A DNA stretch of 63,879 bases, filler included, from Stramenopiles sp. TOSAG23-6 (Eukaryota): assembly GCA_900128565.1 (NCBI GenBank). It is 3 parts of 3 records of this genome, joined end to end, with 100 filler letters (N's around TTAATTAATTAA, not from the genome) between each part and the next. Parts side by side here need not be neighbours in the genome. Positions count along the whole stretch, not along the records: positions 1 to 22,740 come from LT636012.1; positions 22,841 to 45,285 come from LT636013.1; 1 more part is not named here. One strand, written 5' to 3'. Positions within the stretch are counted from its first letter, which is position 1. The number at the start of each line of letters is the position of its first letter. Under the pieces are notes generated by a model that saw only the letters and a list, made by a program, of their open reading frames with translations, was not told the origin of the DNA and searched no databases. This document shows, one piece after another, positions 342-38,619 of the stretch. The position numbers and the translations under genes are program-made.

Positions 342-374
<33 letters not shown>

Positions 375-2399
375 TTTTTTTTTTTAAAAAAATTTTTTAC
401 CCTAAAAAAAAAAAAAAAAACAATTGAAGTTCCAAAATGTTTTTTTTTTTCCCTACATGATGATTTCAATTTTTTTTTTTTTTTTTTTTTTTTTTCGTAC
501 ACAATTTCATACCTAACAAAACCAAATCAATGTTTGAAATATTCTCCTATACTATATGTAAACATAACGAAAGAGTTCTACAACATAAGTGTGTTAAATG
601 TCCTATAGGCTCAACACGAAAAGCAGGTGATAATCCAACAGGTCAAAATACAAAATGTAAAAACGTTATATGTAAACAAAGAGAACATGTGATTAATCAT
701 GAATGTAAAAAGTGCAAAGAAGGATGTATGTTTTATTTATTTTTTTACAAAAAAATCGAATTTTTTTTTTTTATAAAAATTTTGTACCTAACGAGTTTTT
801 TCTTGAAATATTTTTCCAAAATACATGGGGTAGACCACTTGGTGATAAAGCGGTTGGTCCTGATACGTTTTGTTCCAAATTAAAATTTTGTAATTTAGAT
901 ATGTATGCTATACAAAATTTTGAATTCGATGATAATGATTCTCAAAATAGTGAAATAATTGAGACTTCATTTATTAAATATACACATTATGCTAAAGGTA
1001 CAGAGGATGGTGGTTCAATTTGTGTAAAATGTCCAAGACCAGATAAATCAGCAAAAAATGCTATTGTTACATGTACAACTGAATTTGATTCTAGAGTCTC
1101 TCAATGTCAACCTGGTCATTATATTGAAGGTGGTATTGAAGCTGATGCGTCGAATGATTCAAACAAGAATAAAAATGATTTGCATTTAGGTGCTCCAGAT
1201 GTTTGTTGGCCTTGTACACCTCCATCTGTATCCTCTGATGTTTGTCAAGAAGATGAATATGTATGTTTTATTTTTTTTTTTTACAAAAAAATCGAGTTTT
1301 TTTTTATAGTAAATTTTGTACCTAACGTTTTTTTTTTCAATTTCGAATTTATTTTTCCAAAATACATTTACCTCACTGCTCTGGAAAGGAACGCATGGAT
1401 GTTGGATGCTTACCATGTCCATCTATTTCACATGCGACACGTGTCAGTTGCTCAGGCAAACCTCCAAAACATTTTAATCAAAGGAAATCAAATACTATGT
1501 CTACAATGAATGTAATCCTATCTTCATGGGTTATTACTTGTGCAAAAAACTATCATAAATCTCAAGATGTATCAAAATGTATCAAAAATGAAACGATGAG
1601 TAGTGTAACTAATGATTCTATGGATGCAGCTATCATTGTAAATGACTCCAATACAAAAATATCAGACAAAAATACAAAAATATCAGACAAAAATACTGGG
1701 CAGAATACTACACAGGGTATGGATACTGAAAATTCATTTGTTGATCTACAAAGTGAAGCATGTATATTTTATTTTTTTTCAATTTCGAATTTATTTTTCG
1801 TACGAAATTTTGTACCTAACAAAAAACATTTTGAAATATTTTTCTAAAATACATTCACAAATGTTTTTGTTGAGCAACAAAGTGAAGCATTTGTAAATAT
1901 TTCTAGACGTTGGGAAATTGGGTATGAAAATATTAAAAAGTTAAGTGGCGATGAAGAAAATATTGTACGTTTTCAAAATTGAATTTTTTTTTTGAAATTA
2001 TTTTTTCATACGAAATTTTGTACCTAACAAAAAAACAAAAAAACAAAAAACAAATATTTTTTCACAAAACATCTTAAACTTGATGATTCTTTTTTCAGCA
2101 TGAAACAAACGATTGAAGAAGCTGCAGATTTACATAGAACATCAATGGAAAGAATTGTAGAATTAGAACAAATAATATTGAAAAAACAAATACATGTAAA
2201 TGAAGAGAATTCGTGTGATGCTATGCAAAAAGGACCGACATTGTTCCCACAATTCATAAATTCATTTTTGAATAAAGAGACAAAAGATTTTATAAATGAA
2301 ACTCCATTAAGTGTTTTAGCGGTTGCTATTGGAGTTGGTTTCAATGTAGCTTGGTCAATGACGAGTCTCTTATCTCTTGTCATGAAATCTTTCTGGTGA
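138..2399 (+). CDS. Cys-rich surface/membrane protein, 5'-partial, at least 6 exons
   Basis: Exons ~138-328, ~556-725, 827-1260, 1368-1761, 1855-1964, 2073-2399. Splicing restores the repeat register (CVKCPIGSTRKAGDNPTGQNTKC vs CKKCKEG|WGRPLGDKAVGPDTFC, both 23 aa) and a QSEAF repeat. Has a WC...WGYC motif (FN2-like, tentative) and a hydrophobic C-terminal segment. Confidence 0.75.
329..555 (+). other. Intron, family member; exact boundaries ambiguous
   Basis: Donors GTATGT at 329 or GTACGT at 333; TTCGTACACAATTTCATACCTAAC near 494-517; no AG near the 3' end, which falls at about 550-557. Confidence 0.55.
726..826 (+). other. GT-AT intron, 101 nt
   Basis: GGAT|GTATGT...TTTTGTACCTAAC...CCAAAATACAT|GG; removal restores the Cys repeat register. 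Confidence 0.85.
1261..1367 (+). other. GT-AT intron, 107 nt
   Basis: TAT|GTATGT...TTTTGTACCTAAC...CCAAAATACAT|TTA; phase 0 joins CQEDEY|LPHCSG. Confidence 0.8.
1762..1854 (+). other. GT-AT intron, 93 nt
   Basis: GCAT|GTATAT...TTCGTACGAAATTTTGTACCTAAC...CTAAAATACAT|TC; restores QSEAF, matching a second QSEAF downstream. Confidence 0.85.
1965..2072 (+). other. GT-AT intron, 108 nt
   Basis: ATT|GTACGT...TTTTGTACCTAAC...TTCACAAAACAT|CTT; phase 0; cannot be redrawn as AT-AC. Confidence 0.8.
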
Positions 2400-2520
2400 G
2401 TATTTTGTTAAAAGAGGATGAAAAATAAATTAAATTTAAATTTTTTTTTTTTTTTTTTTTTTAACAAAAAAATTTCATCGAGTTTACTACAGATTTATTG
2501 TATATAAAGGACCAGGTTCT

Positions 2521-3549
2521 CTATAAATACATCTTAATATCATCATTCCATTCAAAAGTATCTACATTATCTGTATTAACTTCATGTTTCTCAACTGATA
2601 AACCATCCAATTCATTCAACACAACTATATTAGTAACCATTGCACCCCAGTCATTTAACGGTTTTGAACTTTTCAGAATATTAATAATTTGAAGAACTGA
2701 ATTTTTACTTCCACAAAGAGTAACTAGTACAAAATTACGTAACTCTTCATTCGTATTATTAGAATCAGTACCATTTGTCGCACCTGCACAAAGTCCTCGT
2801 CTTTTAGCACCACGTATTAAGGTCTGCCTAAACATTACGTTGTGAACTGTACCATATACCTTGTAATACATTTTCACTTGTGTATCATCCACTACAGGAG
2901 GATTGTTTTGTTTTGATGTCTCAGAGGTTGAATTAGGAACCTCCGGCGGCATTATTGAAAGTGTATTCTTGGTACCTACGTCGAAATCAGGACTAAAGGG
3001 GTCGATATCCATTGGAAGTCCTTGCAGTTTACGATGTTTCAGTTCTTCAACTACTTTCAACCTCGCAAGTTCCATTTTCTCCCGTGCTGCTCTTAAATGA
3101 TTTTGATGTGCTCCTTCCTGTTTCATTCTTAAACTCGCGTGTAATAATTTCTTCTTCGCATCGAGAAGTTTCGTTTTTAAACATTCTATGTCACCTAGTT
3201 GTACCGACTTATGAAGATGTGTCCACTCGTGGCGTTGTTTTTCATATTCATTTTCAACTTCAGCTGGTTTATCCCGAATTCGAAGTTCACATCCTGGCAA
3301 GGCCTCTCGTTTTTCATACTCCGGTATTAACCAAGAGTATGCGGTACTACGCTTAATAAATGTTTTTTCCAAACAAACAAGTACACCAGCAGTAAGCTCT
3401 TTCCAATGTGGAGCATATATGTACCACAATCCTTGTGTGTCACTAATTGTCCATTTTAATATCTTGGGTGTAGTTGAACATTCTTTTTTCTGAGAAGTAT
3501 GTGTCACTTTTGTATCTTGGTTTCTTACTGGCATATTGGCTGTTACCAT
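2521..3549 (-). CDS. Protein with C-terminal acylphosphatase-like domain
   Basis: KVYGTVHNVMFRQTLIRGAKRRGLCAGATN resembles the acylphosphatase V.G.VQGV.FR...A...GL.G...N motif; the N-terminal half is unrecognised. Confidence 0.6.
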   Translation of the reverse strand: MVTANMPVRNQDTKVTHTSQKKECSTTPKILKWTISDTQGLWYIYAPHWKELTAGVLVCLEKTFIKRSTAYSWLIPEYEKREALPGCELRIRDKPAEVENEYEKQRHEWTHLHKSVQLGDIECLKTKLLDAKKKLLHASLRMKQEGAHQNHLRAAREKMELARLKVVEELKHRKLQGLPMDIDPFSPDFDVGTKNTLSIMPPEVPNSTSETSKQNNPPVVDDTQVKMYYKVYGTVHNVMFRQTLIRGAKRRGLCAGATNGTDSNNTNEELRNFVLVTLCGSKNSVLQIINILKSSKPLNDWGAMVTNIVVLNELDGLSVEKHEVNTDNVDTFEWNDDIKMYL

Positions 3550-3828
3550 GAGAAATGCGATGTACTGTAGGAAGAGATTCGCTGCTGTAATACTACAACA
3601 GAAGATACAGCATTACAAATAATGGTCAATTGTTGTCAAGTCCAATAAATATTTTTTTGAGGACGACAAGAAGCGAGAGACTAAAAAAAAATAGTTTTTT
3701 CAAAAATCTGGAACAAACCTGTCTCAACCTATAAAAATCAACAAAATTGGAGTCAGCCTCCGATTTGTAGTACTGAATAGAACGGGTTGTTGGAACAAAT
3801 AGTACTAGAAATCCGTGTATAATTCAAT

Positions 3829-6800
3829 ATGTCTTTACAAGCACAGCTCCAACAGCTACGTGCCCAGCGTGGTGGTGGAGCAGTGCAGTCTCGACTAAAT
3901 CGTAAGCGATGTTTTACAATACTTTATGAAAGTCCACGCGCCGCGGCGGATGTTTCAGTTGACGTTCTACACTCTCAAGCCATCAATGGACTACTCACTC
4001 TAACCCAGATGTGCCCTGCTTTAGCTGCCTTTGAGAATACACTTCTCGCCCCATCAACGACAACATTAGAACGTGGGCTTCTTGGTAAACAAGAGAACAA
4101 TGCTCTAGATAAGTCTATTTCGAGATTCTTGAGATTGATATCTCCATATATTTTATTACGTGCAGCGCACAAAGTCTTTGAATACCTACTTCGAGTGTAT
4201 GAAGTACATGAGTGGAATATTGACGCTATTATGGAGTGTATTCTCCCATTTCATCAGACTGATTTGTTTGGAAAGTTCGTATCAACACTGCAGATAACAG
4301 ATTCTTCAATGTGGCATTTTCTAAAAGGTGTGAAAAAGAATAAATCACAACTCATGGGTTCGGTTCTCATCGAACAATGTCGAAAAGATCCGAAAGGTTT
4401 ATTGGACTTTATTTGCCGTCTTCCAAGTCGTTCCATTGAATCAGGTGCTAGTTCTAAAACCGCTGCAACATTTACTTCTGTAGTTGTAGTGGGAGTTTTG
4501 CAGAAAGGAGTTCCAAGTGATAGCATTGTCCGCTGCGTTTTGTCATCTGCCCTTTCATTACTGAATACTTCACAAACAAAACAGGAACAACATTGCATCG
4601 CGAGTGCATATCTTATCATTACACAAGTTGCTACAAGTGTAGAGCTCTCCGAAAACGTATTTAATAATATTGTAGATACTATATCTTCTCTATTTATTGA
4701 ATCCAAGACAAATTTTGGTATGAATATGTACCATGATGCTTTACTCTGCTTATTCTGTATATTCGAAACTCAACGGCCTACATCATTTCCAAGTACTGCA
4801 GCATATCGAATACTTAATACGGCATCGTTGACTGCCCTTCGTCATGGAAATGGAGGTGATGATTTTGAATCTGGTATTGTGGCTATTCTTGAAGGTATTT
4901 TTACTAATGATGATGAAACGACATCATGTGCTGGTCAAAGTATATTTGTTACATTGTTACTTGAGTCTCTTGCATCATTACTTGTGACACAATATGACAA
5001 ATTTCGGTTTATTTTACAAGAATTTCTTGACCGAGGTAGAAATATTCTAAATGATTCTCATTCCTGGCAATCATTCTGTCATATTGTTGTTGAAAATACA
5101 ACTGATTTAATACAAAACTCAAAAAATTCAAATGATGATGATATTCTTAAAACATTGAAAAAAATTCTTCATTCGGTCGAAGTAAAATACCCTGAATCTT
5201 TGGATGCTGCCTTGAGTAAATTTTTACATATCCAGAATGATAAAAGGAATGAACAAACAGAAAAAATTGCAAATGTTATTCATAAAATGCTTTCTGGATC
5301 TAACCTACCTCTTCGACTCAGACCAGTTGTTTTAGATACAAATAGTTCAATGATGGGTAGTTGTAATAGTAAAAGAATTACGACAACTGTTGCCTTGGGA
5401 CTTCAACATCCTCTAGCAGCTGTTCGAATGAAAAGTGTCGAACATATTTCTACATCTTTATCGTCAATAGTAAAAACATGTGAATCCGACGAAACAGAGG
5501 ATAAGAAGCAACACGAAGCATTTTTATTCTTTCAAAATAATTTTGTACCACTTCTTAAAAACTGCCTCTTTGACGATGAAGCAGACGTTTCAATTAATGT
5601 ATTACCTCTTCTTTCAATGATTGCAGATCTATCGAAGTCAACACGGACAGTACCAATAGAGTTGAATAGACAAGCTACATTTGGTAAAGAAGAATTAGCT
5701 GAAATTTTATTTTCTCGTCTTTGTAAAATGTTGGATAAAAAAACATCATCAAAAACAAAATTACCGCCAATGATTGAAACAGAAAGTAAGACGTTTATAT
5801 GTGAAATTCTGCGACGTTTTCCTTTACCACTTCCTGAATCAGTGAGTGATGACGCAGCGTCGGGTCATGTAAGTACAGGTGGTTTTTGTTCTCTATTATT
5901 ACAACTATTTCCAAAAGTTGTAGATAAGGTTCATGAGATACATAAAGCAGCCATTGATGCTGCTGATCGTAGTGAACATTGGCTCTTTTCTGGAATCTCG
6001 AAATCAATCTCAAAGAAAGGTACAGCTGAAAAACTTCTTTCTGTACTCGCTCAGAATATTTGTAATAACAGTGAAAAACAAATCGAATCTTGGATGTGCA
6101 GAGGACAAGGCAAATGGATCTTTTTTCGTGCTGCATCTTTGGCTTTACAAGGTATGAAAGACAAAAAAAACAAAGAAAACAAAAAAAACAAAAAAAACAA
6201 AAATGTGATGCCATCTTTTATTGTATCTTTACTACCTCATTTATTTCTTGAGCTTTCTCTACTTGCGAATGAATGTACTCAAAAAATAGATCATTCAACA
6301 ACGATAAAAAAAGCAAAATCGCCTCCATATATTCGTGAACGTCGAATTCGTCCATCATCGTTTGAAAGCCAAGTTGCTGTAATGATAAAATTCATAGAAA
6401 TTGCTTTTAGTCACCTTCCCATGATCAATGGTGATACTAATTTGGATAGTACAGCGTATACAAATGCAATCAATACAAGTTCTGGTCTTATTAATGGAAG
6501 TCTTGATTTTGAAAGGTGGGTTTCGGATAAGACGGAGAATGTAGCACTTATTGTGAATATTGCTTCACTACGTGGTCTTCTTCGTTTACCTCAGCCAATG
6601 TTTGCCTGGTTTCAACCTATTCTTTGTGATCTGCTCGGTCTTCAATTTGGTTCTTGTGGTGTCTCAAAAGTTCTGTCTTTTTTATATTCTTCATTACAAT
6701 TTGACAATGCACCAGTTGCAATTGTCCAAGAACGTGCATTATTACTCAATGCTAAATTGATTGCAAATGATGAAGAATCAGCTAAATTGTCTACGTTACT

Positions 6801-10872: not shown

Positions 10873-10960
10873 AGTTGTATTGGTATTTGAAATAATAAAT
10901 TTTATAATAGAACATTAAAAAATCTATATATATAAAAATCTATATAATTTTTTTTTTGTC

Positions 10961-11226
10961 ATGGTGTCACTAAATGTTTGAAAACTGCAGCAAAATGGAA
11001 CGGAAAAGCAGAAAAGCAGATGAAAGATGTAAAAAGTGATACTCTACAGAAATCCATAATTAAATTCAGCAAATCAACATGTTTTACATGTGGGAAAGAG
11101 GGTAAACATAAAAAAATGGTTCCTTGTAGTCGGTGTAATTGTGCGACATATTGTTCAAAGAAGTGTCAGAGAAAGCATTGGAAGAGTACACACAAGAGTG
11201 AGTGTTTGAAGAAAACAAAAAAATGA
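10961..11226 (+). pseudogene. 5'-truncated duplicate of the neighbouring Sel1/zf-MYND gene
   Basis: Matches 12320-12585 from GTCACTAAATGTTTGAAAACTGCAGC through the MYND finger; the 3' flank is also duplicated; Sel1 repeats are absent. Confidence 0.65.
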
Positions 11227-11781
11227 GATATTGCTTTTATATTTTTTAATGTAAAACAACGCCAAGCACAAACAAATAGATGAAATAATTATTTTTTTAT
11301 TACACTCTAACTTGAAATTGAAAAAAATAAATATAAATTTTACACAATCTATATTATCGGATTATTCAGAATGAGTTAATTTCTATTCATAAATTCGGAA
11401 AAAGACTCAAAATTTTCATTTCATAATTAATTTAAATGAGGAACAATATTCAAACCTCCTATTATTATTATTATCATTATTATGTTTATGTTTTTTCCAC
11501 AACTACTCATATCAAGATGTAAAAGTGTTTTGTTACGAAAATGAACGAAATGAATGAAAATCTCCGCTTTTTCGATCGACGGAGGTTTTAATTTTTTTTT
11601 GCTCTGACCACTCATCCTGATGTGGCAGAATTCGGCCAACCGATATGACATTGGATCGATTGGCTTATTTTGAAGCTCTACTTTCTCTCTCTCATTAAAC
11701 TCCCTCTGTCTATCTCTCTCTCTTGGCCACTGACAGGTGGTGTGGTGCGTCTAGATCCTTGTGTATGCTGAATACTGAACA

Positions 11782-12585: not shown

Positions 12586-12787
12586 GATCTTACTTTCATA
12601 TTTTTTAGTGTAAAAAGACGCCAAAAAAAAACAAATAGATGAAATAATTATTTTTTGATGACACTCTCAATTGAAATTGAAAAAAATAAAAAATCTATAC
12701 AAAATTTTGTACCCATGATTTATTTTTCCTAAAAAAGTGTCTTTTTATACTTACTTGTACTTACTGATCTCTTAGAAAGAAAAGTTG

Positions 12788-14134: not shown

Positions 14135-14533
14135 GGTGTGTTTTCCCAAACAAAAAGTAATACTAGTTATGCGAGAGAACGGTCGATGCGCAGTATTATC
14201 GATGCGCAGTATTATATGCATGCGCCGAGTTGAGTTTCCTTGGTCAAGTCAGCTGACCTAGCTAGTACGATACCGATCAGTTAGGTACAGATTTTTGTAG
14301 CAAAACGAAAACGTGACGTGCTCGATCGACGAACGAAATAATTCCTTGGTTTAATTTTGTAACTGTATGTATGTCCTTCCTTCTGTCAATTTTGATAGTT
14401 TTTTTCTTACAAAACAGGGTACCCATACGCACATAGCTACAGTAGACAGGCTATAATCTTACAATTTCGCTCTCCAACTGAGCAGTTTTGATAAATAATA
14501 TATATAAAGTACGTGTACATATCTCATACATAA

Positions 14534-16920: not shown

Positions 16921-19900
16921 ATGACTGCGACTTCACTACATGAACGTTTAAGTATTATTGCTTCCCAGTTTGAGGAATTACGCAAACAAGACATTGCAAT
17001 ACGCGATCGTGAAATAGCTGAATTGAAAGAAAAGTTACAAACTTTGGAAAAAAAAGAAAGGGAAAATAAAGAATTACGGGAGGAGAACGTAAGTCTCAAG
17101 CAACAAGTGAGCCATTCAAATGTTGCAATAGAGAAAATGCTATCTACTCACAAAACTGATGTAACTAAACTACGGGATGAACTCCTTAATCTACGCTCGA
17201 AATTACAAGGTAATTCTATCAATGCTATTGATGTTGAGGGGGAACTAAAATCCGTTCAATCAAAGACAGAACAAGTTCTTGTATCTGTGAAAACACCCAT
17301 CGAAAAATTCATCAATACTGTAGAAAATACATGCCCCAATGCAAATATATCTAAAGGCGTGAATATAAATTATGCAAAACCTCGGGGGACATTCCAGGAA
17401 AAACCTATTCTTGAACATAAAGTTTCTGAACATGCAACAATCAATTCTAGTTACACAACAAAAGCATCTAGCAAAGCTGCAGAAGAATCGTTTGATAGAG
17501 AGTCAACCATCTTACCTAGTTCAAAGTCAAATGAAGTTGAAGACAAAAACGTGTCCAAAAATGAAACCGTTGAAGAAGATCATTCTCTAAATGTACAAAA
17601 ACAGGAAATGTTAATGTTTGCTGCAGAACAAGGTCTTGTATGTTTTTCAATTTTTTTCGTACGAAATTTTGTACCTAACGATATTTTTTTTTCGAGAAAT
17701 GTCAAAATATTTTCATCATGAATTTCAATTTCTTTTTCGTCGAAAATTTTTGTTCCTCACGAAAAAATTTCCATAATATTTTTACACAATACATGTCGGT
17801 GTTGTGAAAAAAATATTAGAACCAAAAATTGATACAGAAAATGAAGAGGACATGAAAGAGACGATAAACTTGGCTTTTAAACACGCATGTACGCTTTCAT
17901 CATTTAAAAAAAAAAAAAAAAAAAAAATATTTCGTACGAAATTTTGTACCTAACAAAAAAATTTAATTTTTTTTTGAAATATTTTTTTATAATACATGCA
18001 GTCATGGTCATACTGATGTCAGTTTGTATTTATTAAGCATTGGTGCATCTATTCAATCCACAAATGATTTTGGACAGAATGGACTTCATCTTGCTGCGGG
18101 GAGTGGTTCAAAAGATTTGGTAAAAAAATTTCTTGATCGAGGTATGTTTTATTTTTTTTCAATTTCAAATTTATTTTTTTCGTACGAAATTTCGTACCTA
18201 ACAAATTTTACAGTTTTTTTTTTCACAACACAGGGGCTGATATTGAAAGTAAAGATTGCGATGGCTTAACACCAATGGCATATGCAGCATTACACGATCA
18301 ATCGGATTGTTTAGAATTATTACTTTTTGCTGGTAGTGACACTGAAATACTTGTCTATCGCCCAAAATCAAAGGAAATAGCAAATATAAATATAGGAGAA
18401 CTTTCCAAATCTAAAAAAAATAAAAAAAATGAAAAAAATAAAAAAAATGAAAAAAATAAAAAAAATGAAAAAAATGAGATGATCGAAGAAGAAGATAGTA
18501 CAGCAAATGATATAGATGTTTCGGAACAGTCCCAACCAGTTCCAATTGTAGATGCATGTTTATTCCGTGAATCCAAAGCGTGTATTGAGGTACTACAGAA
18601 TAAGAAAATATTATTTTGGAATTCGTGTACTCGTGGAAATTTAACGTATAATATCGGCAATCATCATGCTGCATTGACACTGTTCAAAAAGGCGCTTCAG
18701 CTTACAATGGACAAAACATTAAATATTCCTGTCAAAGATATTTCTACGATTCATTATAACTGTGCTCGAGCAGCCATGCGCTTATCGAAACATGTTCTTG
18801 CTGTTACACACTGCGATCAAGCAATAGCTTTAAAAGAAACATTTTTCAAAGCGGTTAAACTTCGCGCAGAGAATTTCATGGAACTTCACGATTTTAAAAA
18901 AGCTGTCAAAGATTACGAAAATTTGCTACGGTTACTCCCTGGTGTAGGTTTGTCTGGTGCTTCTTCACCTCCAAGTGAATCTCGTAGCAAACATGCAAGT
19001 GTTTCACCTCCTAATATTCGGAATGGAAACTCCAAAGCAAAGTTAGAAGCTGCTTTGCAAAATGCAAAAGCATTGCAAAATTTAAGTCATTATTCACTAC
19101 TTAACATTAATGAAAAAGCAGATGCTGCAACCATTCGAAAAGCCTATCGGAAAATGTGTTTAAAATGGCATCCTGACAAAAATGGCGGCTCCGATGAAAC
19201 TAGATATAGATCTAGTTTAATGTTTCAAAGAATTAGTAAAGCATATGATGAGTTAAATGATTCTTATAAAAGAATAATGTACGATTTAGAACTCAAAAAA
19301 CAAAAATTGGAAACTGAAAAAAAATGTTTATATAGATCTGCATTTTCAAGGAATGGACTAAGTGGAAGTAAAACTTCAACACCAACAATATTTAGAAGTA
19401 GAAGACGATCGTCAACAGTGAAATCACCACAAAGTAGTATGAAACGTGATAGTAATACACCTGTTGCAAACAATCAAACTAAAAACACATTTTTTTCAAG
19501 TCCTGATTCTGATGCAAATATTAATTTAAAGACAGAAAAACGAACTCCAAAGCATCCAAGATTCAGCGCAACCAGAAGTTCAAGTAAACAATATATGAAA
19601 ACTCCAAAGACACCAAAGGATAGAAATAGTTCTTCATTTTCCACTGGGAAAACTCGGCGTTCATACGTTTCTTCTTCTCAAGCTTCTGAATTTCCTGGGC
19701 ATATTTCGTCCACATCAAACCACTCAGCTACAAATGGTCAATATGTAGGAAAGAGTCCATTAAGTGGTATGTACGACAGACTCAAACGTAAACAAGAGAC
19801 AAGTGAAAGTTTCTCAAATGAAGAATATAATTCAAAAAATGTTCCAATGAATTTACGATTTGATAGTGATAATGGGAATAATACCAGTAGTTCTAATTCA

Positions 19901-21431: not shown

Positions 21432-22686
21432 ATGTATAACATCAGTTTCGTAATGATGCTTGTTTTTCTCTTGTTTGCGTCGTTTTGTTCAGTGGAGGCT
21501 GAGTCTTTTGACGGTTTTAACCTTCGATTGAATTGGAAGCCAAGTGTAGGTCAGTGGTTTATAAAAGACAGTGTGAGTGACAATTCTCAGTTTGAGTGTC
21601 CTAAAAAAGCATTCTCATGGAATTATTCTGAATCATCACATATTTTACGAGAAAGTGGCCCTCACACTAATGTAGAGGATTCTGATAGTATTGTAGTCGA
21701 CTACTTGGAGAAAAATAGTGAATATATCACTGTAGTTGGTGATGTATTAAAGCCAAATTCGCATAGCTCTTGTAATGATCGTTACTACTGGGAGATGACA
21801 ATTCTTGAGAATGAATTACATAATGTTTCAGACATAAAATTTGGATTATTGCAGGCGCAACAATTTACAGGTTCCACGGGTTCCCTTGCGTCACTGTTTA
21901 CCTCATGCCAAAAGTCAAAAGTAAATGTTGATTCACTTTTTCTTCCAAAGAAGATATTAGAAATTGCTGAAAAATATTCACAGTCAAGAGATCAATACAC
22001 ATCAAACAGTGATTCGTTTGATAGATTTGGTATACAGAGAATCCCTGTAAGTCGTTCATGGGAAGTAGATTTTCTTGGTGACAAATTGAATTGGTTTGTT
22101 GATGGCGTTTTTAGTCTACCTAATGGATTTCGTAATGAAACAGATAACATTTATTGGACAGATAAAATTGAACATTGGGGTTCTTTTGGTTCTTGGGTAT
22201 CTGAGGAAAAATCTATATTTGATATAAGTACTTCAAAAAAGGATAAAAGTGGTGTTGAGAATGAAAATGAAAACGACAGTGAGAATATTGTGAAAAAACT
22301 TACTTTTGGTGTTGTATTGGACTTTGGTTGTACTAACCCTAACCCTAAAACATCCGAGATATTTCCCGCAACTCTTTCATTTTGGAACAAGGCTAAGAAT
22401 GAGACACTCATTATGAATATTGATCCATTTCAACGTCTTCAGAATGATACAAAAAATAATACAAAAAATAATACAAAAAATGATACAAAAAATGATACAA
22501 AAAATAATACAAAAAATAATATAAAAAATAATACAAAAACATTTCAAAGTTCACTAAAGGGCATCGTAAATTCTTTTTCATTATCAGGGCGCGTATTTAC
22601 TTCAGCAGAGCTCGCCTCTTTTGGTCCAGGTTTTCCGCTTGAACCGTTACGCGTTGCTGTTACGTATTCGAATCCTTTTGATGGTT
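21432..22686 (+). CDS. Signal-peptide protein with SPRY/B30.2-like motifs (exon ending before the gap)
   Basis: RYYWEMTI...IKFGL and TFGVVLDF...TLSFWN resemble SPRY strands; exon ends GGT T|GTACGT. Confidence 0.55.
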
Positions 22687-22894
22687 GTACGTTTTCATTT
22701 CAATTTCGAATTTATTTTTTTTTCGTACGAAATTTTGTACNNNNNNNNNNNNNNNNNNNNNNNNNNNNNNNNNNNNNNNNNNNNTTAATTAATTAANNNN
22801 NNNNNNNNNNNNNNNNNNNNNNNNNNNNNNNNNNNNNNNNTACGAAATTTTGTACCTAACGATTTTTTTTTTGAAATATTTTTCCAAAATACAT
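22687..22894 (+). other. GT...AT family intron sequence split by an assembly gap
   Basis: GTACGT...TTCGTACGAAATTTTGTAC | gap | TACGAAATTTTGTACCTAAC...CCAAAATACAT; both sides are phase 1. Confidence 0.6.
22741..22840. other. Assembly gap with artificial TTAATTAATTAA linker
   Basis: N runs flanking a six-frame stop linker. Confidence 0.95.
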
Positions 22895-25138
22895 CACCTG
22901 CTGACTTTCACGGAAGCCCTCATTCATTTTCAACACCACAACAACCACCACGTTCTACATTTTTAAACTTTGATAATGAAGTTGGTGAAAGTATTGCAGA
23001 TTCATTGAAGGATATTTCTCCGGTTGTTTTACCTAATGAATGTCAAACTCCAATGCACAAAAAAATGATGTCTTCTACGAAATATACAGATAATGATAAT
23101 AATAATAATGATTTAATGAATACTATTACATCAATAAATGATGATGTTACAAGTGATGTAACATTAAAAGATGATTGTGAAGAATTTGTACGACGTGCAA
23201 AGTCAATACTTCTTTTAGCAGAACATTCCCAAGGTAAAAAATCTGGTAATTTAGAACCAGACGATTTAAATAAACTAGCAAAACAATTAAAGAATCTTGT
23301 AGTTGAGAGACTTGCTGACTCGGAACCTGTATTTCGTGTTGCAAACGAGTTAAAACTAATGACAAGAGATTTTGGGTTTTCTCTGCAATGTAGGTTCCCA
23401 TTACTTACTTGGAATTTATTTCATTTTCTGAAGAATTTCGTACCTAACAAATTTCAAATTTGGCATATTTTTTTACAATGTAGGTGCGACTGATATGGAA
23501 GCATTACTATACAACAGTCTTTGGAGAGAAAATAAAGATTCAATAGATAAAAAAGATTCGAATAATGAATCTGTATTGTGTCAAGCAAGGCAAATTGGTC
23601 TTCAAAAACTTATTGAAAAATCTCGTAGCACAAGTGAAGTGATAACTGCAATTTCGGATGTCTCATTTAATAGTACTACTTCACTTGGAAGTGATAATAA
23701 ATCACTAAATCTGATAACATCAATAAGCAACAATAGTTATACGCATAGCATTGCTGATGGTGGTATGGATAATGGATCACCAGCTGTAGTACATGCACAC
23801 TCTTTATTAAATCAAGGTATAATTTCAATAGAAGAATTTGAAGAATTGGTAGAGAAAGATAGGAAATTTAGGTTGAAAGAAACAGTTGATATTGTTCAAC
23901 AACAACAGACTAATAGAATAACACCAGCAGAATTCAAAGAACTTATTGAAGCTCATAAAAACACAACAAATGAAGTACCTATGCACATACTTGAACAAAA
24001 GGAATCAGTGAATACTAAAGAGACCACTAAAGATTTTTCATCAATGAGTGCTTCATTTATGAATAACTCCGATAGTGATTCTATTTCAATGACTCCACCT
24101 TCAATCAAAAATGATGGTACAGTAATTCTTCATAATCCTGCATTGGTTGTATCGAATGCAACACTTTCTAAACTCAGAAGAGTTTTGAAACGAAAACTGA
24201 AATTAATTAAGCAGCGAATTAAAGCAAAAATCATGAGACAAAGTAGAAAAAAACAAACTAAAGAATCATTGCGACACACATCAACAGTGGAAACGACCAA
24301 AACTTCACCTGAAAGTGAATGCTTCACTTTATTTGATGAAATACAAAAACATCAACTTCGAGCATTATTAGATAATCAAAAGTTTTTTGAATTATCTTGT
24401 CAAAATATAGATTATTATCGTGGTGATTATTTGAATTTACGAGGAGATGAAACTGTAAAACAAACCTTAGTACGTGGTGGATCTATGCCACATGAAACTA
24501 TATTCTTTAGTTCCGTCATTGAACGAGTTCAGCCACAGTCGTGGTGGAGCAATGGAAGAACACAAAGAATTCTTGTTATAACTGAGGCTGCTGTGTATGA
24601 ATGTACTACATCTACTGGACAATCATCTATATCTGCTGCTGTTTGGGGAAGTATTACAAAATCTCCAAGAAAATCTCTACTGGAAAGAACACCAAGTAAA
24701 TTATTTGCACCTAACTCTGATTCCTTACCTCAAATTGGATCACTTTTATTATCAAGTAATAAGACAAAGCTTAGCACCACAACATCTATATTATCTGGAA
24801 ATAGTAGTAGCAGTTCTAGTAGTTGTCCACAAACTTTTATGACAATAGGAAAAGTTATAAAGAGATTTCCATTAGAAAGTATAGGTTGTATATCTCTAAG
24901 TAAACTTATAGTTGGTGGAGCGTTCTGTCTAATCATACCTAGTGAATATGATGTTCTTTTTGACACTGTGAGACGAACAGAAATCGTATCTTGGATGATT
25001 CATTTATACGAAATCCGTACGGGTCAGCCATTGATATGTAATTTTATGGAAAGCATGTTATTAACATTGGAAGACGGGCAGACAATGACTACTTATTTCG
25101 ATGAAACAGCTGGGACTGTACGAATGTTAAAATTATAA
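22895..25138 (+). CDS. Protein with C-terminal myosin-I TH1-like domain (exons 22895-23389, 23484-25138)
   Basis: ETIFFSSVIER...QRILVITEAAVY...KRFPLESIGCISLS...FCLIIPSEYDVLF...RTEIV...LY...G..L...F matches the Myosin_TH1 pattern; no motor domain seen. Confidence 0.65.
23390..23483 (+). other. GT-AG intron, degenerate family member, 94 nt
   Basis: CAAT|GTAGGT...AATTTCGTACCTAAC...TTACAATGTAG|GT; phase 1 joins the two ORFs. Confidence 0.7.
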
Positions 25139-25205
25139 AACTCTTTAAATTCACTATTTATTTTTCCTTCAAAATCCATATAAAACTTGCGAAATATATA
25201 ACAGC

Positions 25206-25949: not shown

Positions 25950-25970
25950 CCCTAAACCCTAACCCTAACC
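25950..25970 (-). repeat. Interstitial telomere-like tract upstream of SmB
   Basis: CCCTAAACCCTAACCCTAACC. Confidence 0.8.
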
Positions 25971-26078
25971 GCATCGATTATGTCATGTGACTCATGTCGA
26001 AATTATAGAGGAGAGTTGAAAATTAAAATTTTGAATATTTTTATATTCCTTTCTTAGTACTCCTCGATTAGTTATATC

Positions 26079-28265: not shown

Positions 28266-28310
28266 ATTACAACTATAAACCAAATTATTGTATTTATTTT
28301 ACTAAATTTT

Positions 28311-31775: not shown

Positions 31776-31977
31776 ATCTCTTGTAATAAATGCTGCCAGT
31801 AAAGGCAAGTTTCACTTATCAAAGCGAACTTTCGTTAAAGTTGCGAGGATTACGCGTGAGTGAGTAATACGTCGTACACGGTACCACTACTACTACTGCT
31901 ACTATTAGAGCTAGTACGTAGTATAGCATATAAGAAAGTAGTATATAACGGACTATATATATACAGTTACATTTTTT

Positions 31978-31992
31978 TTAGGGTTAGGGTTT
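31978..31992 (+). repeat. Interstitial telomere-like tract
   Basis: TTAGGGTTAGGGTTT. Confidence 0.75.
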
Positions 31993-32025
31993 ACTAAATT
32001 ATTTTCAAACATGTTATTTATTTAC

Positions 32026-32520
32026 TTAAAGTTTGTCAATAAGATGAAAACGATGTTTCAAACTATATGGAAATGAATCTTCACTTCTTTCATTCCTTGT
32101 ATCACTCAGATCTTTCCTATTGATTTTTCTTCTATTTACATTTTTTTTTAATTTTTCAAATGTATCATTCTTATGATGCGTTGAATTGTTTAATGGACTT
32201 GAAGCACTCTGCATAACCAATTTGAATACATTTTCTCTATTTTTTAAGCGTCGTTGAAAATATTTTTGTTTTAGTTCCTTTGCTTTTTCACGACGGTGTA
32301 CCTCACGAACTGCTGCTTTCAAATATTTTTTAGTTTTTGTATCTACCTTAGCACCACTTCCAACGTTTTGGATTTTCGAAATTGTTGTACAACTTTGGTG
32401 TTTTTGGTGTTTACTGAACTTATTCTGTTGATGTTTTCTTTGATACAACTTCTTTTCACTTGGGTTACGCCTTGTGATGTTTGGAACTCGATTCATATGT
32501 TTATAGAGCTTAGAGTTCAT
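32026..32520 (-). CDS. Hypothetical basic protein
   Basis: 164 aa ATG-initiated ORF, Lys/Arg-rich. Confidence 0.45.
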   Translation of the reverse strand: MNSKLYKHMNRVPNITRRNPSEKKLYQRKHQQNKFSKHQKHQSCTTISKIQNVGSGAKVDTKTKKYLKAAVREVHRREKAKELKQKYFQRRLKNRENVFKLVMQSASSPLNNSTHHKNDTFEKLKKNVNRRKINRKDLSDTRNERSEDSFPYSLKHRFHLIDKL

Positions 32521-32527
32521 TTTATTG

Positions 32528-33698
32528 TCACTTTTTGTATTTTTTTGTATTTTTTGTATTTTTTGTATCTTTTGTATTTTTTGTATTTTTTGTATTTTTT
32601 GTATTTATATCTTTATGTATAGCAATATGGTTAGGGTTAGTGCTATCTTTAAGGGCATATGTCGTAGAAGCTAATGTAGAAGGCACATCATCAGGTTCTG
32701 TTTTACAAAACCAAGAATGTAATTTCAGTGCTCTTATACCGTCATTTGGAAAATTAGGTAAACCTTCCGTATTAATGTTCCACCAATTTATTAATTTAGC
32801 TCCTCTTGGAGCACCAAACAATCGCGCACTCTTTACAAGATCAAACTTTTTAATCCAAATTTGGTTGATACCTATCCCACTACTAGATGAAGTTGGTAAA
32901 CGAAATTTGTCTAATAAATAACACGGTGGGCCATCTTTCAACATTCGCGACTTCGTTTCAGAGCAAGTGGCTTTATTGAATTTATATAAAAAATTATCCC
33001 ACTGACTACGTTGTAAATTTTGAAGACATTCTAAACATAAATACGATGGTCTCCAATATATTTCTCCAATACACTTATACTCACAATAAGTATCATCTGT
33101 AATTTGCTTGTAACAATCTTTGCATACTGAAGATGCTGTTGGCTTTTGGTGACGTACTAACAACTCTGGACGCTCATGTATTGTGAAATTGTTTTTTTGT
33201 AATTTGTTTTGTTAGGTACAAAATTTCGTACGAAAAATAAATTCGAAATTGAAAAAAAATACAACATACATATTTTCGTATTCGTCTTGTTGCTTCTTTT
33301 CGTTGCTTACGGAACTCAAACTTCCTTTGAGATTTTTCTTTTTTTGTCATCTTTAGCAACACACCATCACAGTATACGCGTGGACGCCAAGCTCTATGAA
33401 GTGGTGAATGTCTTTCACGACGTTTCATTTCTACTTCGTCTTTTCGCAAGACGATTTCTAAGTCAGCTTTTGTAATTGGTACTTTGTCAGGTGGTATACC
33501 ATCTTTTCCTCGATCTGGTCTGAGTTCATGAGCTGTCGCATCATCCTGACCTTTTATTTCTAATGAATCAGCATCCCAATATAGAACACGATATATATTG
33601 GTCACTGGATCAACGAAGAGAACTCTACAACCCCACCACCGTCCACTAAGAAAATAAAAAGCGTCATCACCTTGAGAAAAACAAGGGTTGGTATTCAT
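32528..33698 (-). CDS. Hypothetical protein, 2 exons, Cys-containing C-terminal domain
   Basis: Exons 33698-33270 and 33175-32528 join in phase 0 (RKY|ERPEL); CKDC...YCEY...W.PS..C.EC motif. Confidence 0.7.
33176..33269 (-). other. GT-AT intron, 94 nt
   Basis: Minus strand TAT|GTATGT...CAATTTCGAATTTATTTTTCGTACGAAATTTTGTACCTAAC...TTCACAATACAT|GAG. Confidence 0.85.
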
Positions 33699-34027
33699 AT
33701 TATATACAAAAAATCCAACTTAAAACATGCTTCTATAGTCGTAAGTAAAAAAAACTGATGCTTTTGATCCTTGCTACACTCTTACGGTTATTAGACAGTT
33801 CCTATTTGATAATAATAAGAACAACAACCATGCTTTGTCGTGAGAGCGAACAAAAAAAAATTAATATATATAAATATGTTTGGGGTGTGAATAGAGAAAG
33901 ACCGTTAAACCTTTAAAACGGACGAAAAATTGAAGAAGAATTCGTGATGATGACCGATGACTGACCTCACGCGATTGTTAACTTTCAGACGCATCACCAA
34001 AATTCTTCGACAGCACTAACATTCAAC

Positions 34028-35335
34028 ATGGCTTGTCTTTCGAATGACGCGGAATTACGTGCATTTCTTGTACGTTTCATGGAGGCTGTTCGCGATAGAG
34101 ATAGTTCGCGTTTATCGGAAGGTTTTGTGGCCCCAAAAGGAGCTACAGAAATAGTAAATACAAAATTTCTTGGGTCAATTTCTATTGAGTCGGCGTGTGC
34201 TTCAATTGCTGTGGGAAGTTGTGAACCATATGCTAACATTTTAGCTCTCAGACTTCAAAGTCGTGTTGCAGCTGCTGAACCAAACCCCGAACCCCTGAGA
34301 GCATATGAATTGGAGAAGGAATTGGCGTCAAAGTTTTTACAAATATTCACAGGAGAAGACAACTGGCTTTGTCCGTCGCTTTATGCCATTGTCCGCAACT
34401 TACGAGTGGCAGCAACTCGTGCTGATGCAACAGCTATTGCAGCTCGTCCTTCTGGTGAAAACCGCGATAAGCGTACTCGTGTAGAGCCTACAAAATGTCT
34501 TAATGACTGTGTTCAACTTTTGTTATCAGCATTTCGACAGACTGTAAGTGATCGTGCTCCACTTGAAGTGAGTAAAAAAGTAGCAACAATATACGTAGCT
34601 GTAAACTTGTTTAAAGTTTATTTTCGAGTAAATAAGGCGTCGAAGTGTACGGAAGTTTATCAAGCAGTAGCAAAACTCCCACGATTTCCTAAAATTGAAT
34701 CTTTTCCGCTTGCGCATAGCGTTGCGTATCAATATTACGTTGGACGCCTTCACATGTTAGAGGGAAGTAATGAACTTGCTGAGCGAGAACTTTCTTTTGC
34801 TTTACAGCATTGTGATAAGTCACACAGAGTAAATATAAGAAAGATTCTAGCATGTCTTATTCCTGTTAGAATGCTTCGTGGTACTATGCCATCTTTATCA
34901 TTACTGAAAAAGTTCGGATTATTAGAATTTACAGATATTGTGAAGGGAGTAAGAACTGGAGATGTAAGACTTTTCAGGAATGCACTTTCACGACATCAAT
35001 CCATATTTATAGAACAAGGCACATTTTTAGTTCTTGAGAAATTACGAAATCTTACATATAGAAATTGTTTAAAACGTTTATGGTTTATCAATGGAAGCGG
35101 AAAACGTCTTGATACTAGAGAAATTGTGCGGATATTTAGTTGGTTAGATATTTTCAATGAAGGATATATTTCTACAAAAATTGATGAAGAAGAACAATTG
35201 GATGATGTGGAATGTATTCTTGCTAATCTTATTCATAGCGGTTTTGTCAAAGGTTATATTGCTCATAATCATAGAAAACTTGTACTTAGTGGTAAAAATG
35301 CTTTTCCCAGTGTAAAACAAGTACTTCAAAAATAA
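34028..35335 (+). CDS. PCID2: PCI domain protein PCID2/Csn12/Thp1-like (TREX-2)
   Basis: SKK.AT..V.VNLFKVYF, YQYYVGR, NIRKILACLIPVRML.G, DDVECILANLI..GFVKGYIAH.H.KLVLS.KNAFP. Confidence 0.88.
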   Translation: MACLSNDAELRAFLVRFMEAVRDRDSSRLSEGFVAPKGATEIVNTKFLGSISIESACASIAVGSCEPYANILALRLQSRVAAAEPNPEPLRAYELEKELASKFLQIFTGEDNWLCPSLYAIVRNLRVAATRADATAIAARPSGENRDKRTRVEPTKCLNDCVQLLLSAFRQTVSDRAPLEVSKKVATIYVAVNLFKVYFRVNKASKCTEVYQAVAKLPRFPKIESFPLAHSVAYQYYVGRLHMLEGSNELAERELSFALQHCDKSHRVNIRKILACLIPVRMLRGTMPSLSLLKKFGLLEFTDIVKGVRTGDVRLFRNALSRHQSIFIEQGTFLVLEKLRNLTYRNCLKRLWFINGSGKRLDTREIVRIFSWLDIFNEGYISTKIDEEEQLDDVECILANLIHSGFVKGYIAHNHRKLVLSGKNAFPSVKQVLQK

Positions 35336-35337
35336 AA

Positions 35338-35351
35338 TTAGGGTTAGGGTT
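35338..35351 (+). repeat. Interstitial telomere-like tract just after the PCID2 stop
   Basis: TTAGGGTTAGGGTT. Confidence 0.75.
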
Positions 35352-35426
35352 GAGTATGTAATTTAACTTTTTGTTTGCTTTTTGTTTTATATATATATTT
35401 ATGATTAGACCGTGACTAACATTCAT

Positions 35427-37349
35427 TTAGAAGGATTTACATTTCGATTTTCCCGCTGATTCTTTTTGNTTTTTTTTTTGTTGTGATATATTTTTTCTAT
35501 TACGATTGCGCACTCGTTTAGGTTGTTTTAGTTTTGGTGATGATGGACCATTGTTTTTTCGTTTACTATGTTGTTGTTGTTGTTGTTGTTGTTGCTTTTG
35601 TTTTTGTTGTTGTTGTTGTTGTTGTCTTTGAATTACATCTTTATTTACTTTACTACGTTTTTTAATAGAAGAACTACTGGAAGAATTTCGTCTGACATCA
35701 CGAGAAACATGTGGTCTGATATCACGATCAACATTTTGCTTTTGGTGTAATTTCTTTTTTGGACCACCACAACAATCAGGTAAAGATAAAAACCAACTTG
35801 GAATATTTGATCCACTTTCTTTCAAGGCTGCTAGAATATCTTTAGCAAGTTTTCCATTTTCCGATTTCTTATCCATACCAGGCATATAAAATGTAGTTGC
35901 CACTCCATTATGTCCTGCACGACCTGTTCTTCCAATTCGGTGTACATAGGAATCAAATTCATCTGGTAGAGAAAAATTTATTACATGTTCAATATTTGGA
36001 ATATCTAGTCCTCTTGCAGCAACATCAGTAGCTACAAGAATACGAACTTTCCCGTACCGAAATTGTTTTAATGCCGATTCTCTTTGGTTTTGACTTCGAT
36101 CACCATGAATGGCAACTGCACTTAGATCAACTGTTTCTTGTATATACTTTTCCTTTTCACTATTAGGTGTAGGATTATTATTACTAATTTTAACCTTTTC
36201 ACTATTAGGTGTAGGATTATTATTACTAATTTTAACTAATTGTTTTGTCAACCAACGGGCTTCTGATTTTTTCTTTACAAAGACTAAAGTTCTTCCACTA
36301 ATTTTGGAAAGTTCATGTAGTAACATATCAAGTTTGGCTCTTTTATCTTTTGGTGCATGCAATATGATTTGTTTAATTGCCTCTACAGTTCCTCCAACTT
36401 TACCAACAGCAACAAATACATAATTTTTATGCAAGAAAGAAGACGCCAATTTCTGGATTGAAACTGGAAAAGTAGCAGAGAAAAGAAACGATTGACGTCC
36501 CATACTTGAGGACATCATACCACGCTGCATCACTATTTTTCTAATTTGTGGTTCAAAACCCATGTCAAGCATTCGGTCTGCTTCATCAAGAACTAAAAAT
36601 TTGCACTTTTGGAGTGAAATTAAACCTCTGTCAACAAAATCTTGCAAACGACCTGGTGTTGCTACTAGAACATATAGCTTATTGTATGCGAGTGCTGCCA
36701 ATTGTGGTTTTGCCTTTGCACCGCCATATACAACTGCTGTTTGAATATTTGATTTAAAAGTGAGTTTTTTTGCTTCTAACTCAATTTGTTGAGCAAGTTC
36801 ACGAGTAGGAGCTAGAATGAGTGCCCTTGGCATACAAGGTGATGTTATTGCAGCTTTCGCTATAGATCCTGTAGAATGAATAGCAGCACAAAGAGGCAAA
36901 AGAAATGCAAATGTCTTACCAGAGCCGGTTTGTGCGCAACACATGAGATCGTGACCAAATAAACCAAGGGGAACAGCGTGCTTCTGAATAGGTGTTGGTG
37001 TCTTATACCCCATTCTCTGAATGTTACTCTTTAGAAAACCAGGAATATTTTTTATATCAGAGAATTTTTCTAAAGATGAAACCTCATCCGCATTTGGACC
37101 GGAGCGGACGACATTGATTTTATCATATGCTTTGAAATTTATACCCACTGTACCACTTTTCTTGCCAAACAGTTGTTCAATTGATAGTGTTTCTTGTTTC
37201 GACCCTCCCTTCTTTGACGCCAACTTTTCTTTCATTTCCCAGAAATATTTTCCTTCGGTAGCTGCTTTTTCAGCCATCGCCTGTAATTGCTTAGCACGGC
37301 GACCCTGCTTGCGTTGCTTGCGCTTGGACAAAGCATTTACATCAGCCAT
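35427..37349 (-). CDS. DEAD-box RNA helicase, DDX3/Ded1/Vasa-like
   Basis: PTPIQ, DLMCCAQTGSGKT, PTRELA, LDEADRMLDMGFEPQIR, SAT, HGDRSQ, YVHRIGRTGRAG; poly-Q tail. Confidence 0.9.
   Translation of the reverse strand: MADVNALSKRKQRKQGRRAKQLQAMAEKAATEGKYFWEMKEKLASKKGGSKQETLSIEQLFGKKSGTVGINFKAYDKINVVRSGPNADEVSSLEKFSDIKNIPGFLKSNIQRMGYKTPTPIQKHAVPLGLFGHDLMCCAQTGSGKTFAFLLPLCAAIHSTGSIAKAAITSPCMPRALILAPTRELAQQIELEAKKLTFKSNIQTAVVYGGAKAKPQLAALAYNKLYVLVATPGRLQDFVDRGLISLQKCKFLVLDEADRMLDMGFEPQIRKIVMQRGMMSSSMGRQSFLFSATFPVSIQKLASSFLHKNYVFVAVGKVGGTVEAIKQIILHAPKDKRAKLDMLLHELSKISGRTLVFVKKKSEARWLTKQLVKISNNNPTPNSEKVKISNNNPTPNSEKEKYIQETVDLSAVAIHGDRSQNQRESALKQFRYGKVRILVATDVAARGLDIPNIEHVINFSLPDEFDSYVHRIGRTGRAGHNGVATTFYMPGMDKKSENGKLAKDILAALKESGSNIPSWFLSLPDCCGGPKKKLHQKQNVDRDIRPHVSRDVRRNSSSSSSIKKRSKVNKDVIQRQQQQQQQKQKQQQQQQQQHSKRKNNGPSSPKLKQPKRVRNRNRKNISQQKKXQKESAGKSKCKSF
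36152..36235. repeat. Perfect 42-nt tandem duplication inside the helicase
   Basis: VKISNNNPTPNSEK encoded twice by identical DNA. Confidence 0.9.
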
Positions 37350-37525
37350 TGTCACGAGAACTCGTTTTTGCCGAAGTCAAGTAACCAACACAAAAGGAAG
37401 ATCCAAAAAAAAACGAAAAAAATTTCGCAAAAATTTCGTCTAAAAAAAAAGTTTAAATGATATAATAAATAACTAATAACCGCATAATAACCTTGTAAAA
37501 AACATAGTTGTTTTAATTCAATAAA

Positions 37526-38619
37526 TTACAACTGTTTAGACTTTTTTGAATAAACATTTTCACCCTTTTCATCATGGATGCCATTATTATTTTGTCCAGA
37601 TGAAAGAGATTTTATTGTGTTATTCGTAGATAAACTTCTTTTTTTTCCCAAAATTTGGTCAACTGAAGAATTACTAGAATGAGTGGGTACAATATTTAAT
37701 ATATCTGCACCTTTCATTGGACCTCCAGATGTATTCATATTATGTGTTGCTTCTAGTCCTTTGAAGTATTTCACAGTTTTAACCCGTAACTCTAACGTTG
37801 CATCTTCGTCACAAACAACGCAAGCTCGTGGATGCATTTGAAGCATTGAAACAGTCCACATGTATTTTGGAAAAATATTTCAAAAAAAATCGTTAGGTAC
37901 ACAATTTCGTACGAAAAATAAATTCGAAATTGAAAAAAAAATAAAACATACATGTGACTAATACCTTCCTCAATGCATTTATACATCGCATACGCTTTGT
38001 GTGCACCTGTTATAATAATCAATACTTCGCGTGAATCCATTACAGTACCAACGCCTACTGTAAGCGCCATTTTGGGTACTTTCGAAATGTCATTGTCAAA
38101 AAACCTAGAATTGGCAACTATTGTGTCATAAGCTAATGTTTTCACACGTGTACGTGATGTCAAGCTTGAACCCGGTTCATTGAATGCAATATGCCCATCT
38201 GGCCCAATACCACCCAAGAATAATTCAATACCCCCGTATTGAAATATTTTTTCTTCATATAAACGGCACTCTTCGACCAAATCATTTGCGTTGCCATTCA
38301 GCATGTGAACGTTGTTTGGATCAATGTCCACGTGTTTGAATAAGTTATTCCACATAAAAGCATGGTATGATTCTGGATGATCTTCGGCGATACCGACGTA
38401 TTCATCCATATTGAATGTTGCAACATATTTGAAGCTTAATTCCCCCGCGTTATAAAAATTTACAAGTTGTTTGTATACTGGGATGGGAGATGAGCCAGTT
38501 GGCAACCCAAGAACAAAAAGATTATTGGCACTTGGTGCGTACTCTGTGATACGTTTTTGAACATATTTCGCAACCCAAAGTCCAGCATCATCCTTAGATT
38601 CCTTGATAATAATACGCAT
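37526..38619 (-). CDS. GNPDA: Glucosamine-6-phosphate deaminase, 2 exons
   Basis: [34 protein letters not shown]; exons 38619-37952 and 37859-37526 restore conserved IEEG.SHMWTVS..Q.HP...[20 protein letters not shown]. Confidence 0.95.
37860..37951 (-). other. GT-AT intron, 92 nt, containing no AG dinucleotide
   Basis: Minus strand CACAT|GTATGT...TTCGTACGAAATTGTGTACCTAAC...CCAAAATACAT|GTGG; exact removal is needed for HMWTVS. Confidence 0.92.

Follow-up and report, generated by a model that had tools for sequence, protein, structure and literature searches.

The 63,879-nucleotide stretch of Stramenopiles sp. TOSAG23-6 (assembly GCA_900128565.1) analysed here, called the window throughout, consists of three parts of three records joined by two 100-base gaps, and it carries a repeated intron of about 92 nucleotides (nt) in genes that are otherwise unrelated. 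The reading that we favour, with a probability of about 0.68, is that these introns form an introner-like family, that is, spliceosomal introns of common descent that were multiplied by insertion into unrelated genes. A first-pass annotation of the same DNA had proposed such a family from five introns, and all five were recovered at the same places and on the same strands: those at 1762-1854, 18142-18233, 33176-33269 and 37860-37951 measure 93, 92, 94 and 92 nt, respectively, and the fifth (22687-), which is split by a gap, about 93 nt. The consensus proposed there equals that of a 14-row alignment of the family. Its description of the copies as near-identical fits a 43-base core, which two copies share exactly and a third shares with one difference, and does not fit the complete copies, which are 81-91% identical.

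The 43-base core occurs three times in the window, at 0, 0 and 1 mismatches, and was matched in 0 of 100 shuffled sequences. A 13-base core word was found 12 times at up to one mismatch (8 of them exact), against 0.14 expected. An nhmmer profile built from four copies with 5-base flanks was run on the 64-kilobase (kb) window, where it recovered the four seeds (E values of 1e-22 to 1e-24) plus 18 further matches at E<0.01, with 33 rows in total at E<=1. The strand was that of the local open reading frames (ORFs) in all 22 matches at E<0.01, so that the orientation sense to the gene claimed for the first five extends to the whole set, and no antisense copy was present among these matches. When matches were merged per intron, about 19 loci resulted in the 64 kb, 17 of them in coding regions of at least eight genes. 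The loci at 14366 and 48720 lie just 5' of plus-strand genes, outside the coding sequence, and may be introns of 5' untranslated regions. Searched with Rfam at gathering thresholds, the whole window gave 0 matches. The family introns, together with the other introns of the aminotransferase gene, are as follows.

37860..37951, minus strand: family intron of 92 nt in a glucosamine-6-phosphate deaminase gene; borders fixed by homology; 6-base direct repeat ACATGT across both borders.
33176..33269, minus strand: family intron of 94 nt in a gene without known domain; the frames join in phase 0.
1762..1854, plus strand: family intron of 93 nt in the cysteine-rich gene; 5' end GTATAT.
18142..18233, plus strand: family intron of 92 nt in the ankyrin-TPR-DnaJ gene; canonical GT...CAG.
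22687..22894, plus strand: family intron of about 93 nt, split by a 100-base gap; the halves 22687-22740 and 22841-22894 overlap by 15 bases.
726..826, plus strand: family intron of 101 nt in the cysteine-rich gene.
1261..1367, plus strand: family intron of 107 nt; CAATTTCGAATTTA block after the branch block, not before it.
1965..2072, plus strand: family intron of 108 nt, GTACGT type.
1..137, plus strand: family intron at the edge of the window, represented by its 3' part.
333..557, plus strand: long composite intron with family pieces; 3' border ambiguous (550, 555, 557 or 565).
17638..17794, plus strand: family intron of 157 nt in the ankyrin gene; composed of two incomplete copies arranged in tandem.
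17889..17997, plus strand: family intron of 109 nt in the ankyrin gene; a GT-AG alternative that keeps the frame was not found.
23390..23483, plus strand: decayed family intron of 94 nt, GT...TAG.
45386..45476, minus strand: family intron with its 3' side lost at the second scaffold gap.
52782..52930, plus strand: decayed family intron in the aminotransferase gene; branch block duplicated in tandem; ends TAT.
52951..53116, plus strand: decayed family intron in the aminotransferase gene; end at 53116 (CAT) or 53107 (CAC).
53259..53402, plus strand: intron without family core in the aminotransferase gene; canonical GT-AG.
53500..53591, plus strand: family intron of 92 nt in the aminotransferase gene; borders fixed by homology; direct repeat ATG; no GT-AG reading.
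53667..53809, plus strand: intron without intact family core in the aminotransferase gene; starts GTAAGT; ends TAT by homology.
54084..54283, plus strand: intron of 200 nt without family core in the aminotransferase gene; end TAT by homology.
55239..55369, plus strand: decayed family intron in a Gb3-synthase-like glycosyltransferase gene; starts TTATGT, ends ACAT.
59614..59716, plus strand: decayed family intron of 103 nt; ends TGTAT; nhmmer E value of 0.015.

Similarity between copies starts at the GT, or at an AT just before it, and ends at the final AT, with dissimilar flanking exons. The host genes (deaminase, aminotransferase, ankyrin-TPR-DnaJ, glycosyltransferase and cysteine-rich) are mutually unrelated, and the claim of a single intron family in unrelated genes is upheld. 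The range from crisp to degenerate copies was also reproduced, with pairwise identities of 81-91% for the four complete copies listed against 53-76% for other, decayed members. The longer decayed relatives that had been placed in the aminotransferase and glycosyltransferase genes were found there, at 52782-52930, 52951-53116 and 55239-55369.

Among the other explanations, the one that survives best, although we hold it to be improbable, is that old introns were made alike by duplication or gene conversion without any new insertion. A single repetitive cysteine-rich gene (1-2100) holds six members, a single ankyrin gene holds three, and two introns contain internal tandem duplications, as this explanation would have it. 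However, the flanking exons are dissimilar, no two of the three ankyrin introns occupy the same point of the repeat unit, and conversion of 92-base tracts without flanking homology between unrelated genes is unlikely. Furthermore, the position occupied in the deaminase gene is empty in two relatives: the site reads CACATGTGG without interruption both in a relative of 79% identity (L001) and in a genomic contig from a metagenome (L015). Positions 272-1093 of this contig encode the deaminase of another eukaryote, with introns after ...DEYVG and ...VGVGT, and the deaminase gene of the window has neither of them. Therefore, the intron position is not shared at the one site examined, and the sharing of positions with distant orthologs, which the first-pass annotation had named as the mark of ancient introns, was not seen there.

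Three blocks are near-universal in the family: the 5' end GTAYGTTTT, a branch block TTTYRTACCTAAC located 31-44 bases from the 3' end, and a 3' block TTTYMMAAWACAT that ends in ACAT. Most simply, these three kept blocks would be splicing signals. Between the 5' end and the branch block, the crisp copies conserve a spacer made up of a T run, CAATTTCGAATTTA, another T run and TCGTACGAAATTTT, which in decayed copies within intact genes is replaced by runs of A or T (14-row alignment). As the spacer is replaced in working introns, it is dispensable for splicing, and because it is neither of low complexity nor required, yet identical in unrelated genes, it marks common descent.

It is on this spacer that a further alternative, a little less probable than duplication or conversion, founders: that there is no mobile family and that the likeness comes from long splice signals needed by the organism plus AT-rich filler. 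Even decayed introns do keep the 14-base branch block as well as the blocks at the two ends, and the filler consists mostly of T and A runs, but a non-repetitive, CG-containing stretch of 34-43 bases (CAATTTCGAATTTA...TCGTACGAAATTTT) is identical in copies of unrelated genes. Other introns that work in these same genes do not have the stretch, which is therefore not a required signal. A similarity confined to short splice signals had been named as the other outcome contrary to a mobile family, and in the window the likeness goes beyond such signals, into the spacer.

Read-through of any copy leads to a frameshift or a stop, and removal of GT...ACAT joins open frames of 40 codons in eight copies. 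Reading-frame logic was rejected as insufficient proof of AT borders, and the cases in which the borders are firm are the deaminase intron and the aminotransferase introns. In the deaminase, exon 1 ends in ...GISH(M), the exons SHM|WTV abut exactly and SHMWTVSM is unbroken in all five homologs aligned; exactly 92 bases have to be removed for agreement with the homologs. The ACATGT repeat at the borders allows seven placements, GT-AT and AT-AC among them, and none of the seven is GT-AG.

The exons of the branched-chain aminotransferase were delimited by tblastn of full-length homologs, and the six-intron model aligns end to end with seven homologs, the sole gap being of 3 residues at one junction. 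This gap is removed when the end at 53107 (CAC) is taken for intron 52951-. Removal of copy 53500-53591 is required between ...GVM and NFF..., and homology also requires TAT ends for introns 53667-53809 and 54084-54283, which have no intact family core. In the second of these, a CAG following a T-rich tract (54276-54283 region) stands 5 bases before the TAT end, and this canonical acceptor appears to be skipped. For the deaminase and the aminotransferase, then, homology shows the predicted excision to be exact and its borders to be other than AG.

In the remaining genes, the borders were approached in other ways. Two of the three family introns of the ankyrin gene end in CAT and one in CAG, their junctions being judged against what we take to be the ankyrin consensus. 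A Pfam profile runs across the intron junction of the glycosyltransferase, and no homologs were found that would fix the junction of the gene at 33269.

The glycosyltransferase intron starts with TTATGTTTTCA, which corresponds to the 5' end of the family with the first G changed to T, in a gene that appears intact in other respects. The gene may be dead, the base may be a sequence error, or splicing may tolerate such a start.

We infer that the spliceosome removes the copies at the RNA level, since they start with GTAYGT, keep a CTAAC-type branch block at a set distance from the 3' end, lie strictly in sense and include some GT-AG members. The same four features argue against elimination of the segments at the DNA level, as happens with ciliate internal eliminated sequences, even if short direct repeats (AT, ATG, CATG, ACATGT) at many borders and exact excision without AG would suit such a process. 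Moreover, 5 of 20 exon ends have no T at -1 or no A at -2, and the conserved genes are read in the standard code without in-frame stops, all of which makes DNA elimination very unlikely. Slightly more remote still is the assignment to minor (U12-type) or AT-AC introns. The border repeat permits AT...AC in the deaminase and in one aminotransferase intron, and the branch block resembles what we take to be the U12 consensus. However, AT-AC is impossible in several introns (including 17638, 22687, 53667 and 54084), the 5' end GTAYGT does not fit the U12 type, and at 31-44 bases the branch block is farther from the 3' end than U12 branch sites are known to be. Thus, on that presumed consensus, the present introns have neither the 5' site nor the branch close to the 3' end of U12-type introns. 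An artefact of assembly or amplification is the least credible explanation of all. The linker in the scaffold gaps and the small size of the source run, of 2015, would be in line with it, but the copies differ from each other and sit in frame-consistent places, and the sampled words of the window were found in three later seawater metagenomes, of 2024, in shares of 0.68, 0.43 and 0.32. From these metagenomes, the organism is a marine microbe. Three metatranscriptomes contain small shares as well, to which no weight is given.

With respect to the sites occupied, AT closes the exon 5' of the intron in 12 of 20 cases (background 0.095, p=3e-8), T is the last base of that exon in 17 of 20, and G is the first base of the exon 3' of the intron in 11 of 19 (background 0.19, p=1.6e-4). 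Therefore, the copies sit at ...AT|G... sites. Eleven introns have AT at their own end and also at the end of the preceding exon; in intron 18142, AG stands at both places. The AT/AT repeat could result from a 2-base target duplication that supplies the acceptor or, equally, from a site preference plus one mutation.

For an introner-like family, a mechanism can be outlined. Each copy would carry the full set of splicing signals, so that a copy entering an exon in sense, mostly at an ...AT|G... site, would be cut out exactly and leave the protein unchanged. The acceptor selected would be YA with T, G or perhaps C as the next base, 31-48 bases past the branch block. The copies probably arose by insertion, and their spread could have proceeded by reverse splicing and reverse transcription or as a DNA element that duplicates a 2-base AT target, two routes that the data do not separate. 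The RNA route is favoured by the lack of antisense or clearly intergenic copies among the 22 matches, by the element being itself an intron and by an internal stretch complementary to the 5' site. The AT...AT repeat and the short GTAT...ATAC ends speak for the DNA route, and the 40 ORF pieces scanned in the window, which contain neither transposase nor reverse transcriptase, speak against it.

Intron 23390-23483 shows a 10-base direct repeat CAATGTAGGT, at 23386-23395 and 23476-23485, which spans its 5' junction and its 3' end. The working borders of this intron (GT...TAG) are offset by 4 bases from the repeat. The repeat was considered as a target duplication and rejected, since a stop codon remains after removal of one repeat period.

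A number of observations weigh against multiplication by an introner-like element or against its borders as drawn here. Identical full-length copies are absent and the best pair reaches 91%, so that the recent activity proposed in the first-pass annotation was not borne out. The failure to detect transposase or reverse transcriptase counts here too, and the long transposase-encoding copy that had been suggested as something to look for was not found in the window, nor were copies in both orientations. The target duplication is ambiguous. The short inverted ends GTAT...ATAC, of about 4-9 bases (about 9 with one indel), are short enough to be splice signals, and no stable fold beyond that of shuffled sequences was detected in six copies (z from -1.80 to +0.84), with end pairing of 4 bases only. 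An exact search with a 23-base core gave 0 matches in each of the metagenome, viral and prokaryote-genome public collections. As an empty-site relative, L001 may be complementary DNA. Finally, most of the introns supported by frame only also permit a GT-AG alternative by frame logic.

The last of these points bears on the 3' border. Of 19 curated introns, 18 start with GT, 16 end in AT and 3 in AG, although the count of 16 is partly circular, as the AT borders of frame-only introns were placed at the end of the shared block. GT...AT is the single rule that fits all the firm cases. As some introns of the aminotransferase gene end in AT and yet lack the repeat core, the 3' AT looks like a property of the splicing of this genome that the element obeys, and not one specific to the element. 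The spread of non-canonical introns described in the first-pass annotation thus stands, by homology, for the deaminase and the aminotransferase, but the trait seems not to be special to the element.

A wider proposal can be put forward tentatively, at somewhat less than even odds. The major spliceosome of this marine protist lineage would no longer need a G at the last intron position and would take A followed by T, less often by G and perhaps by C, at a set distance past a long branch signal. A 92-base introner with its own CAT acceptor would have seeded a large share of the introns, and annotation under the GT-AG rule would break most intron-bearing genes, which would have hidden the family from surveys. 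The signals would be accounted for if the 5' end of U1 paired with AU|GUAUGU, if the branch-binding site of U2 paired with UACCUAAC and if U2AF1 had been lost or altered.

Bursts of intron gain are at present best explained by introners, whose surveys rely on annotated, mostly canonical introns; a family ending in AT would escape both these surveys and ordinary gene finders. Gene models of this organism and its relatives would be wrong wherever GT-AG was assumed. If the borders are true, this organism would be a naturally occurring example, beyond animals and dinoflagellates, of a relaxed rule for the 3' splice site, and would provide a short and simple element with which to study how introns enter genes. 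No description of GT-AT introns or of the present family was found in the portions of the literature searched, which did not cover supplementary species lists (e.g. that of PMC9860276).

The known systems are compared here through excerpts of the respective reports. The introners of Micromonas are described with canonical borders and dozens of identical copies, and reverse splicing followed by copying into DNA is proposed for them (PMC4540971). The present family is like them in consisting of short repeated introns in unrelated genes, on the coding strand and with their own 5' site and branch signal, and in having an internal stretch complementary to the 5' site, in this case CGTAC inside TCGTACGA (PMC4540971). 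Sense placement within genes, listed for introners in the same excerpt, was found for 22 of 22 matches, two of which are 5' of genes. In contrast to Micromonas (PMC4540971), the present copies mostly end in AT, their best pair is 91% identical and they were counted in 64 kb only.

The elements of Amoebophrya, as given in the excerpt of PMC7789003, have inverted repeats of 8-20 bases that form hairpins, no preferred border dinucleotides and border repeats of 3-5 bases. As in that case, we are dealing with a marine protist that has repeated introns not of the GT-AG type, in which border repeats of a few bases make the cut ambiguous (PMC7789003). Unlike those elements, the present introns nearly all fit one GT...AT rule, and the family pairs about 4 bases at its ends and shows no hairpin (PMC7789003).

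Transposon-type introners are reported in about 5% of the genomes surveyed, and repeats across an intron cannot separate target duplication from site preference, according to the excerpt of PMC9860276. The resemblance to these is that the element brings splice sites, that insertion plus removal keep the length of the messenger RNA, and that a repeat of the exon end at the intron end could be a target duplication (PMC9860276). The difference is that their families were found among annotated, mostly canonical introns, whereas the repeat is AT|gt...at in the present one (PMC9860276). In tunicates, the excerpt of PMC13326754 reports a changed U2AF and modification of small nuclear RNA, with introner-type elements as a possible source of weak sites. 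Most introns are off the GT/AG rule there, as they seem to be here, although tunicates are an animal lineage (PMC13326754).

The window is AT-rich, with a GC content of 0.25-0.38 in 4-kb bins, and gene-dense. It includes long unbroken ORFs, such as that of a UTP10/HEATR1-like protein of 2349 residues, and a few genes that are split into pieces. The closest proteins found were 79% (deaminase) and 60% (PCI protein) identical, a relative in EukProt shows protein identities of 60-72%, and the best matches with named species, at 36-73% identity, came from oomycetes, Mortierella-like fungi and a haptophyte. Each of the two 100-base gaps (22741-22840 and 45286-45385) consists of 44 N, the 12-base linker TTAATTAATTAA, which has a stop in all six frames, and another 44 N. 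Of the four contig ends that adjoin the gaps, three fall within family copies, a pattern that high-copy repeats produce in short-read assemblies.

Some further repeats were observed. Short lysine/asparagine-rich units (KKNEKN..., NTKNNTKN...) derive from A-rich repeats in unrelated genes, at 18400-18470 and 22430-22540. The palindrome GGTCAGCTGAC is located just 5' of the starts of two leucine-rich-repeat genes, at 14285-14330 (minus strand) and 48745-48760 (plus strand), in both cases adjoining a piece that resembles the branch block, and these two genes may be paralogs with a common leader region. The double unit AACCCTAACCCTA, which is telomere-like, was counted 10 times with one mismatch allowed, against 0.02 expected, and on both strands, at positions that include 21261, 22335, 25955, 31979, 35339, 44930, 53677, 59864 and 60029. 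Several of these copies are intergenic and near gene starts, and the rest fall within ORFs or an aminotransferase intron; the unit may serve as a promoter motif similar to the telo-box.

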